A stretch of DNA of 31,219 bases from positions 1 through 31,219 of the IMG/VR virus record IMGVR_UViG_3300026263_000005. One strand, given 5' to 3'. The notes under the pieces are model-generated. The model saw nothing but the letters and a program-made list of their open reading frames with translations, did no database searches and had not been told where the DNA came from. This stretch comes from a virus (taxonomy: Duplodnaviria > Caudoviricetes). Positions 4,771 through 9,317 of this stretch are shown here, piece after piece. Each line of letters opens with the position of its first letter. The first letter of the stretch is position 1. The translations under genes and the position numbers were made by a program.

Positions 4771-5311
4771 TCCTAAGACTGAGACCTATAAGTTAGTTAA
4801 GGAGTTCACATTATCACCAGAGTTTCCATGGTTCTATGTGGAGAATGCTACACCACAGGATGTATCTAACGATGAGTTCCAGACTGTACCATTCTATAGT
4901 CATGTACTGATAGCAAGACCTAAGTGGCAGGGTATAGGTGGTAACTATATGTTCCCTGAACCTCAGTCAGAGCATTTAACACAGTTCTATCCTCTATTAG
5001 AGGAGATTATAGTTGCGAATGAGATACCAGTCACCACATTGCTCAGATATAATGTGAACTGTACTCATCCACAGGAAGATGATCGGTTATCCACACCACA
5101 CTTCGATCATCCCTATCCTCACAAGAATATAGTCGTATATCTCCAAGGCGAAGGTGACACAGTTTGTTTCCCAGATGGAGTTGACCCTTCATGGTCAAAT
5201 GCTGACAGTTTCAGTCCAGAAGAGGATGATGTGCTATTATTACAGGGACTACACTGCATGAGACCACCTGAAACAGGAAGGAGGATTATTCTAGTTGCTA
5301 CATTCCTTTAA
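4751..5311 (+). CDS. 2OG-Fe(II) oxygenase-like protein
   Basis: FPWFY N-terminal motif, PHFDH (HxD), VVYL..GDT, distal LHC and RIIL. Confidence 0.75.
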   Translation: MFQKLINPKTETYKLVKEFTLSPEFPWFYVENATPQDVSNDEFQTVPFYSHVLIARPKWQGIGGNYMFPEPQSEHLTQFYPLLEEIIVANEIPVTTLLRYNVNCTHPQEDDRLSTPHFDHPYPHKNIVVYLQGEGDTVCFPDGVDPSWSNADSFSPEEDDVLLLQGLHCMRPPETGRRIILVATFL

Positions 5312-5328
5312 AGTTTTCCCAAGTTCAC

Positions 5329-5349
5329 CCAGTTTCTCAACTGGCACAC
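5329..5349. promoter_or_regulatory. inverted repeat CCAGTT-N4-AACTGG(CACAC) abutting the -35 box
   Basis: ccagtt 5329-5334, tctc, aactgg 5339-5344, directly upstream of TTGACA. Confidence 0.55.
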
Positions 5350-5383
5350 TTGACAAGATTTTAAAAGTTTGCTACTATAAATA
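5350..5383 (+). promoter_or_regulatory. overlapping sigma70-like promoter (TTGACA-N17-TACTAT) and T4 late promoter (TATAAATA)
   Basis: TTGACA 5350-5355, TACTAT 5373-5378, TATAAATA 5376-5383, all intergenic. Confidence 0.85.
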
Positions 5384-5388
5384 ACTCA

Positions 5389-5516
5389 ACGTGAAGGACG
5401 CTTTACGTATCTTAACACTCCGAATGTCTCAATTACTCACGCTAGGTGTTGTCAAGGAAGCCTCAAACGGATCTAGTCGAAGATCCTAACATCCGTAGGT
5501 TAATCTCTACGAGACA
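5389..5516 (+). ncRNA. candidate structured cis-regulatory 5' leader RNA
   Basis: Stems 5389-5396/5401-5408, 5414-5419/5445-5450, 5469-5474/5481-5486, 5494-5498/5507-5511; long-range 5425-5430/5511-5516. About 145 nt leader in an otherwise gap-free region. Confidence 0.55.
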
Positions 5517-5529
5517 CTTAACTACTATT

Positions 5530-5916
5530 ATGTCTATTAAATCAACAATCGCTGCTATTGCAGCAAGCCCATTTCTACTCGCTGGAGCCGCTTTTGCTGG
5601 TCCTTATGTGAACGTAGAAAGCAACCTCTCTTATCCAGATGGAGACTACTCTGCAGCAACTACTGACGTTCACGTTGGGTATGAAGGTGGAGAAGGACAA
5701 CTAGGATATTATGTCCAAGCTGGTCCAGCATTCGTACATAGCGAAACTGATTCTGATACAGAAACAGAATTCTCTGGTAAAGTTGGTCTTAACGTAGCTG
5801 CTACTGAATCTCTTGGAGTATACGGCGAAATCGCTGGTATCTCTAATGGCGAAGACAGTGGTGGAGACACCATCATTGACTGGGGTGCTAAAGTTGGTGC
5901 TAAGTTCACTTTCTGA
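5530..5916 (+). CDS. small outer-membrane beta-barrel (porin-like) protein with signal peptide, 128 aa
   Basis: Signal peptide MSIKSTIAAIAASPFLLAGAAFA, alternating amphipathic strands, C-terminal GAKFTF ending in Phe. ATG 5530 preferred to GTG 5446. Confidence 0.8.
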   Translation: MSIKSTIAAIAASPFLLAGAAFAGPYVNVESNLSYPDGDYSAATTDVHVGYEGGEGQLGYYVQAGPAFVHSETDSDTETEFSGKVGLNVAATESLGVYGEIAGISNGEDSGGDTIIDWGAKVGAKFTF

Positions 5917-5940
5917 TCACTTATCAATATAAACTAAATA

Positions 5941-5964
5941 GGGTGTCTCATGACACCCTTTTTT
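5941..5964 (+). terminator. rho-independent terminator
   Basis: GGGTGTC-TCAT-GACACCC followed by T6. Confidence 0.85.
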
Positions 5965-5980
5965 ATTGGAGAACAAACAT

Positions 5981-8026: not shown

Positions 8027-8730
8027 CAAATAAAGTATGTGTAATCTCCGTCACTCCAGATGCTGAGAGAACTATAGGATACATAGCACGTGTATCTAAC
8101 CCAAAGAACCAGGACAACGAGAAGGTCTCTGGTCTTTTAAAGTATTGCATTAAGCATGGACACTGGTCTGTCTTTGAGCAAGCACACATGACTGTTGAGA
8201 TTAATACAACACGTGGACTTGCTGCACAGATACTGAGACACAGGTCATTCACATACCAAGAGTTCAGTCAGAGGTATGCTGATTCATCTTTACTAGGTGA
8301 TGAGATACCACTACCAGAACTAAGAAGACAGGACACTAAGAACCGTCAGAATAGTATCAATGATCTTGACCCTAAGGTGGTCAACAAGTATGAGATACTC
8401 ATGGCAGATCACTTCAGACATGGTATGGATCTCTATCAGCAGATGCTTAATGATGGTATCGCTAAGGAGTGTGCTAGGTTTGTACTACCACTAGCGACAC
8501 CCACTAGGTTATACATGACAGGTAGTGTACGTAGTTGGATTCATTATATAAACTTACGCTCTGCTAATGGTACTCAGAAAGAGCACATGGACATTGCTAA
8601 TACTATTAAGAGACACTTTGTGTGTCAGTTTCCAGTAGTATCAGAAGCATTAGAGTGGTGTGATAATGAATGTGATTGTAAAGAAGATGATTACTGGGGT
8701 GATACACAACCCTGCCTACGTATAGATTGA
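8023..8730 (+). CDS. thyX: flavin-dependent thymidylate synthase
   Basis: RHRSFTYQEFSQRY ThyX motif, HWSVFE, KECARFVLP, TQKEH. Confidence 0.97.
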   Translation: MTNKVCVISVTPDAERTIGYIARVSNPKNQDNEKVSGLLKYCIKHGHWSVFEQAHMTVEINTTRGLAAQILRHRSFTYQEFSQRYADSSLLGDEIPLPELRRQDTKNRQNSINDLDPKVVNKYEILMADHFRHGMDLYQQMLNDGIAKECARFVLPLATPTRLYMTGSVRSWIHYINLRSANGTQKEHMDIANTIKRHFVCQFPVVSEALEWCDNECDCKEDDYWGDTQPCLRID

Positions 8731-9317
8731 TGGCAGAAGTAGTACCAGCATTTTCTTCACCCATCTATGTGACAGGTGAGGACAAAGACTTTCCATTGAT
8801 TAACTGGGAGTGTCTAGAGTTCACACCATATAATGTAGAGAGTGTAGGATACCGTACAGTTGATCAGCATGTGTTAGACTCATTCCCTGACTTAGAGGGG
8901 TGGGTCTTTCAGCATGTATTGGACTATGTTATTGGTGCAATGGGAGTTGATCCTGATCTACATTGGCCTGAGATAACATGCTCATGGATCAACAAGTATA
9001 AGAAGGGACAAGCATCAGTACCTCATCACCATGCTAACAGCATGTACTCAGGTAATATATTCTTGCAAGGAGACACAGGTAACTTAGTGTTTGAGAAACC
9101 TAAACATATGGTTGTAGAACCCACGCTCTCCCAACAGAACCTATATAATTCTACTAGCTTTACTTTACCACCAATAAAGTCAGTGCTATGTATGTTTCCG
9201 TCTGATCTTATGCATTACACCTTGCCAAATGAATCAGAATCGGATAGAATAACACTCTCCTTTAATGTAATGGTTAGAGGAACACCACGATGGATAGAAG
9301 ACAATGCCCACGTATGA
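8730..9317 (+). CDS. putative 2OG-Fe(II) oxygenase (TIGR02466-like)
   Basis: SWIN, HHHANSMYSG, FPSDLMH, RITLSFN. Confidence 0.85.
   Translation: MAEVVPAFSSPIYVTGEDKDFPLINWECLEFTPYNVESVGYRTVDQHVLDSFPDLEGWVFQHVLDYVIGAMGVDPDLHWPEITCSWINKYKKGQASVPHHHANSMYSGNIFLQGDTGNLVFEKPKHMVVEPTLSQQNLYNSTSFTLPPIKSVLCMFPSDLMHYTLPNESESDRITLSFNVMVRGTPRWIEDNAHV

Follow-up and report, generated by a model that had tools for sequence, protein, structure and literature searches.

The leader upstream of the Phage_OMP gene in the stretch of viral DNA analysed here (the window, 31,219 nucleotides, whose relatives are T4-like cyanophages) belongs to a real family of structured leaders without an Rfam entry and is an orphan cyanophage cis-regulatory RNA of new design. 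Its conserved core consists of two hairpins, P3 and P4, joined by a linker ending in CAUC, with invariant unpaired bases, narrow spacing to the start codon, a link to one gene family and an upstream slot in which modules are exchanged. Our favoured reading, held tentatively, is that the core is the binding site of a host or phage protein that sets translation of the predicted outer-membrane protein. A sequence-only reading of this DNA had already singled out the non-coding stretch before ATG 5530 (5384-5529), part of a gap at 5312-5529 (218 nt) that is indeed the longest non-coding gap in the window, and had placed the leader among the orphan cis-acting elements of cyanophages; its association with a single gene family at a narrow distance from the AUG agrees with that placement. 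The features of the locus, all on the plus strand, are:

5350-5378, plus strand: sigma-70-type promoter, TTGACA at 5350, 17-nt spacing, TG, and TACTAT at 5373-5378, matching the consensus at 10 of 12 positions.
5376-5383, plus strand: T4-type late promoter TATAAATA, overlapping the -10 box and present in most homologs.
5389-5408, plus strand: M1 (P1), an optional 5'-terminal hairpin with a GACG tetraloop at 5397-5400 and pair probabilities of 0.92-1.0.
5414-5450, plus strand: M2 (P2), an optional hairpin with the conserved 11-nt loop CUCAAUUACUC at 5428-5438.
5467-5486, plus strand: P3 of the core, ACG followed by a GGAUCU/AGAUCC stem, with a GUCG loop at 5476-5479.
5487-5493, plus strand: linker of the core, ending in the invariant CAUC at 5490-5493.
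5494-5516, plus strand: P4 of the core, CGUAGG/UCUACG, with unpaired A5512 and invariant A5516.
5514-5529, plus strand: spacer to the start codon, 16 nt, A/C/U-rich, with no Shine-Dalgarno (SD) sequence.
5530-5916, plus strand: Phage_OMP (DUF680, PhCOG173) gene, 128 aa, a predicted outer-membrane beta-barrel.
5940-5966, plus strand (called on both strands): intrinsic terminator-like hairpin downstream of the Phage_OMP gene.

The protein encoded at 5530-5916 matches PF24653 (Phage_OMP) with an E-value of 1.4e-42 and also phrog_417; DUF680 is the GenBank label of the family in relatives that include P-RSM4 and S-TIM4, and PhCOG173 is its name in papers. Members are described as six-stranded half barrels, modelled as dimers (10.64898/2026.10.24.761521), the gene is reported to be common in cyanomyophages (PMC6224464) and the protein is listed among the contents of S-SZBM1 virions (PMC9146016). 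Loss of function of ORF224, the Phage_OMP copy described for S-TIM4, swept all populations passaged in Synechococcus WH8102 (PMC6224464), which suggests that the dosage of Phage_OMP can matter. Upstream of the leader, the predicted dual promoter was recovered as a sigma-70-type promoter with an overlapping T4-type late box, together spanning 5350-5383; a sigma-70 arrangement like that of the window is seen in many homologous leaders, and TATAAAT is given as the T4 late consensus (PMC3037559). Transcription would then start near 5385, giving a leader of about 145 nt, and since a terminator-like hairpin follows the gene (5940-5966), the promoters and this hairpin together delimit a unit that is probably monocistronic. 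RNA contigs, which show neither starts nor levels, begin at 5396 in both run X1 and run X4 (one study); the X4 contig spans the leader into the gene (5396-5777) and a contig from run X2 crosses the promoter (5262-5462). Further upstream, the open reading frame at 4751-5311 matches phrog_274, labelled endonuclease V; this frame and that at 8727-9317 resemble 2OG-Fe(II) oxygenase-type genes, which are common in cyanomyophages.

All the strings named in the sequence-only reading are present and correctly placed, but the richness in pairings that it describes does not exceed chance in the single sequence (MFE z = -0.61): 54 of 200 shuffles give an equally stable fold, and 50, 6 and 59 of 200 shuffles reach the helix counts of the window leader. 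Single-sequence folding of this leader is uninformative. Homologous leaders were collected from 80 loci selected with the window protein and 80 selected with a divergent homolog, 156 of which had at least 110 nt upstream of the gene. All 156 protein-selected leaders could be parsed with the core, giving 122 unique cores. When parsed on the sequence anchors CATCY and CRAG, the second of which fixes part of two paired columns, the six columns of P4 were paired in 122, 121, 120, 122, 110 and 122 of the 122 cores, with exchanges between C-G and U-A (77/45), C-G and U-A (87/30) and A-U and G-C (75/45) pairs. GTCG is present in 118 of these cores, and an A three bases past the AG (AG-N-N-A) in every one of them; G5513 of the window core can pair with C5493. 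The arms of P3 form 6.5 bp on average in their true combinations versus 3.1 bp when swapped between leaders, and 54 distinct 3' arms occur. The distance from AG to AUG is 14-27 nt in all 122 cores and 15-21 nt in 108.

Conservation and compensatory change were both strong in an alignment of 34 out of 39 diverse representatives, in which CAUC is invariant and 99.2% of P4 cells are paired. The covariation score of this 34-sequence subset was 0.611 versus 0.280, reached in 0 of 500 shuffles under a null that ignores relatedness, and slid controls scored 0.11-0.25. RNAalifold recovers the same two helices, and variants of P4 are scattered over a quick protein tree covering 105 of 199 proteins. Frequent G-U pairs point to an element that acts as RNA on this strand. 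A promoter box lies so close to the core in 27 of 242 leaders, ending no more than 25 nt from GTCG, that the core alone would be the whole leader, and P4 is the dominant fold in 149 of the 156 leaders that are not of type A (described below). We also observed a divergent core at about 1230-1305 of locus L145, in which P4 is CUCGU/GCGAG with CAUC and AG-N-N-A intact, and a leader (L147) that keeps only a P3-like hairpin.

The absence of an SD from the window leader, noted earlier, was confirmed, and an SD-like word occurs in 40 of the 122 homologous leaders. No conserved helix covering the SD or the AUG was found: bases preceding CAUC pair with bases past the AUG in only 20-37 of 122 leaders. 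Nor did leaders of the window's type show a conserved expression platform in the form of an anti-SD helix or a terminator. Pairing of CAUC itself over the AUG was considered and rejected, showing no covariation. Translation from GTG 5446 was likewise rejected, as its frame is not conserved across leaders (39 of 122 keep it open over 28 codons, and 14 have a start located 19-28 codons upstream).

The core is closely tied to the Phage_OMP gene. A pattern scan of viral contigs made blind to genes, with a pattern estimated to occur in about 2,100 stretches, listed 120 matches, and among these listed matches 110 precede Phage_OMP. The corresponding metagenome scan returned 97 of 120 matches with neither the stems nor the gene and 22 that form both stems; of the latter, 20 lie before Phage_OMP, one is in a truncated leader and one is a GC-rich chance match. 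A covariance model of the core, R1, found one strong copy per complete phage in five of five genomes, always before a Phage_OMP gene. A search of 101 cyanobacterial genomes with R1 gave no true copy on host DNA, the matches being limited to a phage-sized contig in G001 and a 39-nt chance match. S-SCSM2R carries a second, tandem Phage_OMP paralog that adjoins pstS. Relatives of this paralog have no core directly upstream (42 of 56 loci searched) except L429 and L434, which are 27-35% identical to the query; other core matches at these loci lie about 530-690 nt upstream and presumably belong to the tandem copy, as in S-SCSM2R. In S-CAM1 (L083; W03:106028-106335) a wcaG RNA, a tRNA-Gly and the core stand in a row before the OMP gene, and many OMP and Som loci appear to be preceded by a tRNA gene. 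Three phage contigs (L008:3078-3387, L015:3163-3361 and L024:3164-3361) have permuted cyanobacterial-type tmRNA genes that lie downstream of the OMP gene at a distance of about 1.2 kb; L008 also has tRNAs close by.

Upstream of the core lies a slot whose content can be exchanged: a type A module, M2 (alone or preceded by M1), or just a plain hairpin at the 5' end. Across all scans, the 348 unique core leaders comprise 111 with type A (GG-ACU-CGA-A-rich loop-UCG-UAAC-CC), 116 with M2 and 121 with neither, and type A and M2 occur together in 0 of 249 leaders. The window leader is of the M2 type (type B), with M2 preceded by M1; most of its close relatives carry a different module. The S-TIM4 Phage_OMP leader is also of type B, the leaders of S-CAM1 and S-SCSM2R contain only the core, and L100, L113 and L118 are M2-only leaders. 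On a quick tree of 105 of 199 proteins, one row of which is mis-started (L155), the starred branches force at least six changes for type A and at least seven for M2. M1 comprises 12 distinct covarying stems around GACG and is present in 24 of the 348 core leaders, all 24 of which have M2.

Four hairpins had been proposed for this leader, and homologs back all of them (P1, M2, P3 and P4), although the register of M2 is not the AACACT/GGTGTT pairing then suggested. Its conserved register consists of 5425-5427/5439-5441 plus 5420-5421/5445-5446, so TGTCTC, which had been assigned to the second loop, is mostly the 5' stem strand of M2. The loop consensus is CKCAAYUAMUY, and a 9-nt loop variant also exists. 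Both closing pairs form in 49 of 49 cases using four pair types, with covariation at this level in 0 of 500 shuffles, and among 72 contexts retrieved by their loop sequence they are kept in 71; the M2 model, R2, matches the window at 5417-5449 (E 2.3e-6). ViennaRNA assigns the apical pairs a probability of only 0.02-0.05, and the support for M2 is therefore comparative. Two further pairings put forward for the window were not conserved. The TGTCTC/GAGACA pseudoknot can pair fully in 2 of 14 distinct type-B signatures and the mutually exclusive ACGGAT/ATCCGT helix in 1 of 14, that of the window itself, in neither case with compensatory change and in both with pair probabilities of at most 0.01. 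Neither pairing nor covariation was found between the M2 loop and the core (best mutual information 0.17).

Type A leaders offer an alternative pairing of their own. All 84 parsed contexts (93 leaders) retain CCUGYG, a strand with complementarity to P4, and the resulting anti-P4 helix is nearly isoenergetic with P4, winning 26 of 91 folds versus 65 of 91 for P4, with little compensatory change. This helix does not reach the start region and is absent from the window's type. Relatives with type A may thus have a two-state design.

M2 is found before a second, unrelated gene. In a gene-blind scan, 89 of 120 M2 matches lie before Phage_OMP, 2 are in cut leaders and 4 precede a different gene, which encodes an SLH/OprB Som-type porin unrelated to Phage_OMP; the remaining 25 are others, mostly lacking the longer stem. 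Among 53 unique leaders of phage Som genes, 17 have M2, in many cases as an extended hairpin directly past the promoter, and R2 matches 9 of 11 phage Som leaders tested. In contrast, M2 is present in none of 23 host som leaders, 21 of which have GTGTGAGGA before the AUG. This we take to be the target site of the small RNA Yfr1, and by eye no site of the GTGTGAGGA type was seen in phage Som leaders. Control of host som mRNAs by Yfr1 (PMC6778093, which gives only UCCU within the Yfr1 motif) is likewise a post-transcriptional input on porin mRNA leaders of picocyanobacteria. Searches of host genomes with the M2 pattern (61 genomes) and R2 (41 genomes) gave only weak, scattered matches, of which those listed lacked either the stems or a leader context. 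The phage Som leaders L615-L694 share a second conserved word, UGUC(C/G)U(A/U)UAG(U/A)AC, about 20-35 nt before the AUG, the start of which resembles the AUGUCG of the core loop. In P-RSM4, an M2-like hairpin (W01:119568-119600, L755; 20.6 bits, E 0.003) encodes MPQLIA within what reads to us like a major capsid gene; found in one of five genomes, it is probably a chance match.

Comparison with known RNA families left the leader without a counterpart. No Rfam family gives a gathering-level match in the window, and none matches the leaders in 40 loci; a minus-strand match to DUF2693 in the window scores 15.4 bits against a cut-off of 81.3 and was dismissed as chance. The manA model (RF01745) has no match in the window or the 40 leader loci at E-values up to 1-10 and finds manA elsewhere in three of the five same phages. 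Leader scans were also negative for wcaG (RF01761), found at separate places in two of five phages, and for PhotoRC-II (RF01717), a motif positioned before psbA and found at separate places in all five, which R1 does not match at E-values up to 0.5. Glutamine riboswitches (glnA, Glutamine-II) and the cobalamin riboswitch clan have no match on the leaders; the same searches detected Glutamine-II in L270 and RF00174 in L271 and L295. Kink-turns of the L10 leader type have a 3-nt bulge and tandem GA/AG pairs adjoining a stem, and the L10 leader (RF00557) was rejected, as the strand entering P4 is the invariant CAUC, not GA, and Rfam gives no match. Guanidine-II RNAs consist of two hairpins, each with an ACGR tetraloop; with loops of GACG (optional, in the 24 leaders with M1) and GUCG, and again no Rfam match, this family was set aside, as were Ocean-V and Ocean-VI, whose sequences differ. 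Like the leader described here, manA, wcaG and PhotoRC-II are covarying structured elements located in putative 5' UTRs of accessory genes in cyanomyophages (PMC2864571). They occur in the same phage genomes as the core, at other loci and with no sequence or model match to it, whereas the present leader is tied to outer-membrane-protein genes and has swappable modules; PhotoRC-II shares with the core, by eye only, a layout of hairpin, pyrimidine linker ending in AUC, and hairpin. The motif strings did not turn up in the supplementary files of PMC2864571, where gaps might conceal matches, and we found no description of this leader in the literature covered, a scope that excludes the alignments of PMC10690425 and the supplementary data of PMC5737381. 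It may correspond to a DNA-virus candidate listed without a name in PMC10690425.

As no conserved helix was found over the start, a protein-bound translational operator is our best guess, a little short of what we would call probable. The leaders of E. coli thrS and of ribosomal protein operons contain two stem-loops with conserved loop bases near an open ribosome-binding region. The core resembles them in placing two stem-loops at a narrow distance upstream of such a region, so that a structured site abuts an open ribosome-binding region at conserved spacing; it differs from them in having no recognised rRNA or tRNA mimicry and no Rfam leader match, and in being restricted to phages. Invariant loop and linker bases within freely covarying stems fit recognition by a factor. 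Against the operator, no host copy of the core or of M2 in the genomes searched points to a binding protein. With the start region apparently free of any conserved sequestering helix, a factor bound at the upstream edge of the 30S footprint would block or help ribosome loading in the manner of thrS. A factor with a general action on phage outer-membrane-protein mRNAs would recognise M2, making it an independent second site, and the 5'-most hairpin might also slow decay from the 5' end. A ligand pocket or a fixed tertiary fold would explain the conserved unpaired bases just as well, and the nearly isoenergetic anti-P4 strand of type A fits an RNA switch and counts against an operator.

The operator has to be weighed chiefly against a fixed scaffold without regulation, in which the hairpins shield the mRNA 5' end and the core favours ribosome loading for high constitutive output. 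The 5' UTR of E. coli ompA, the model for such a constitutive stability scaffold, is made of several hairpins, including a 5'-terminal stem, and heads the mRNA of an outer-membrane protein, as does the leader described here. In 202 of 214 leaders a hairpin begins no more than 12 nt from the late box, versus 1347 of 2140 mononucleotide shuffles, the dominance of P4 outside type A suits a static fold, and host som mRNA is reported to be among the longest-lived (PMC2897979). We nevertheless consider a scaffold rather unlikely: unlike ompA, this large family keeps its loop and linker bases invariant and swaps modules from one lineage to another, and stability alone needs neither some 12 invariant unpaired bases nor an M2 loop at two unrelated genes. 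A riboswitch, in which binding of a small ligand to the 55-nt core (or to M2) alters translation or nuclease access, the likeliest ligand being a nutrient metal or a cobalamin-type cofactor, would account for a compact 5' UTR fold with conserved covarying structure and invariant unpaired bases, and for the conserved two-state potential of type A. The surroundings of host-like and distant Phage_OMP relatives provide weak hints of metal or cofactor uptake: a cobalamin riboswitch (L271:1326-1472, G151:C1; 33.6 bits) lies directly upstream of the closest host-like Phage_OMP relative, a broken gene with two TAG stops, and a distant host barrel relative, a His-rich 322-aa protein, stands beside znuA (L277:22-1830). 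The location of the S-SCSM2R tandem paralog beside pstS also speaks for a riboswitch. The lack of any conserved helix found over the SD and AUG, the missing M2-core covariation, the non-conserved alternative pairings of the window, the absence of the core from host DNA in the 101 genomes and the lack of an Rfam riboswitch match all speak against a riboswitch, which we regard as unlikely. Two other loci were seen in these searches, a distant host barrel relative of 256 aa with two Phage_OMP-like halves (L280:369-2205) and a locus with a Glutamine-II riboswitch (L270:1934-1990, 56.2 bits), a strong Phage_OMP match and no R1 core.

The conserved loops might instead pair with a phage sRNA or, through the CAA of M2, with a tRNA anticodon. 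The 11-nt pyrimidine/A-rich loop on a variable stem and the replacement of a host sRNA-type site by M2 in phage Som leaders are in keeping with such a partner, but the 9-nt loop variant and a core loop of only 4-5 nt make it improbable. M2 could also be read as the start of a peptide, M-x-Q-L-L, whose translation remodels the leader; in the window this frame starts at 5424 (MSQLL...). An in-frame ATG, GTG or TTG lies within six codons before CAA in 51 of 64 cases versus 4 and 3 of 64 when the other frames are read, most changes within the loop are synonymous or Leu/Ile (in a search whose pattern limited the variation seen), and a 36-aa CDS is annotated over the leader of P-RSM4. This CDS (PRSM4_230, L081:1577-1687; ORF_223 in S-TIM4) is a non-conserved uORF and may be a misannotation. 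Moreover, 13 of 64 cases lack a start, UG doubles as a stem strand, a variant with a 2-nt deletion, CGCAAACUU (9 contexts), keeps the stem, and the reading frames range from 6 aa to fusion with the main gene, leaving the leader peptide only a slim chance. A DNA-level element, either an operator or a hairpin part of the promoter, would suit the adjoining strong promoters and the location of M2 sometimes upstream of a second promoter. It is very improbable, as the arms covary around fixed loops, G-U pairs are common and the element keeps its distance from the AUG, not from the promoter.

A broader reading, which we put forward as a speculation with few chances of being right, is a cyanomyophage post-transcriptional regulon for outer-membrane channels, in which the core is a new protein, metal or cofactor sensor and a phage-specific factor that recognises M2 co-controls two unrelated channel families, M2 replacing the host Yfr1-type site. 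If true, this phage regulon would tune the surface of the infected cell for nutrient uptake or superinfection exclusion. At 55 nt (5463-5517), the core is a small RNA target for which nature supplies hundreds of variants, and the identity of a ligand would hint at what DUF680 transports or blocks. The finding that M2 precedes two unrelated outer-membrane genes in phages, but none of the host genes examined, suggests a rewiring of envelope-protein expression by phages at the RNA level.
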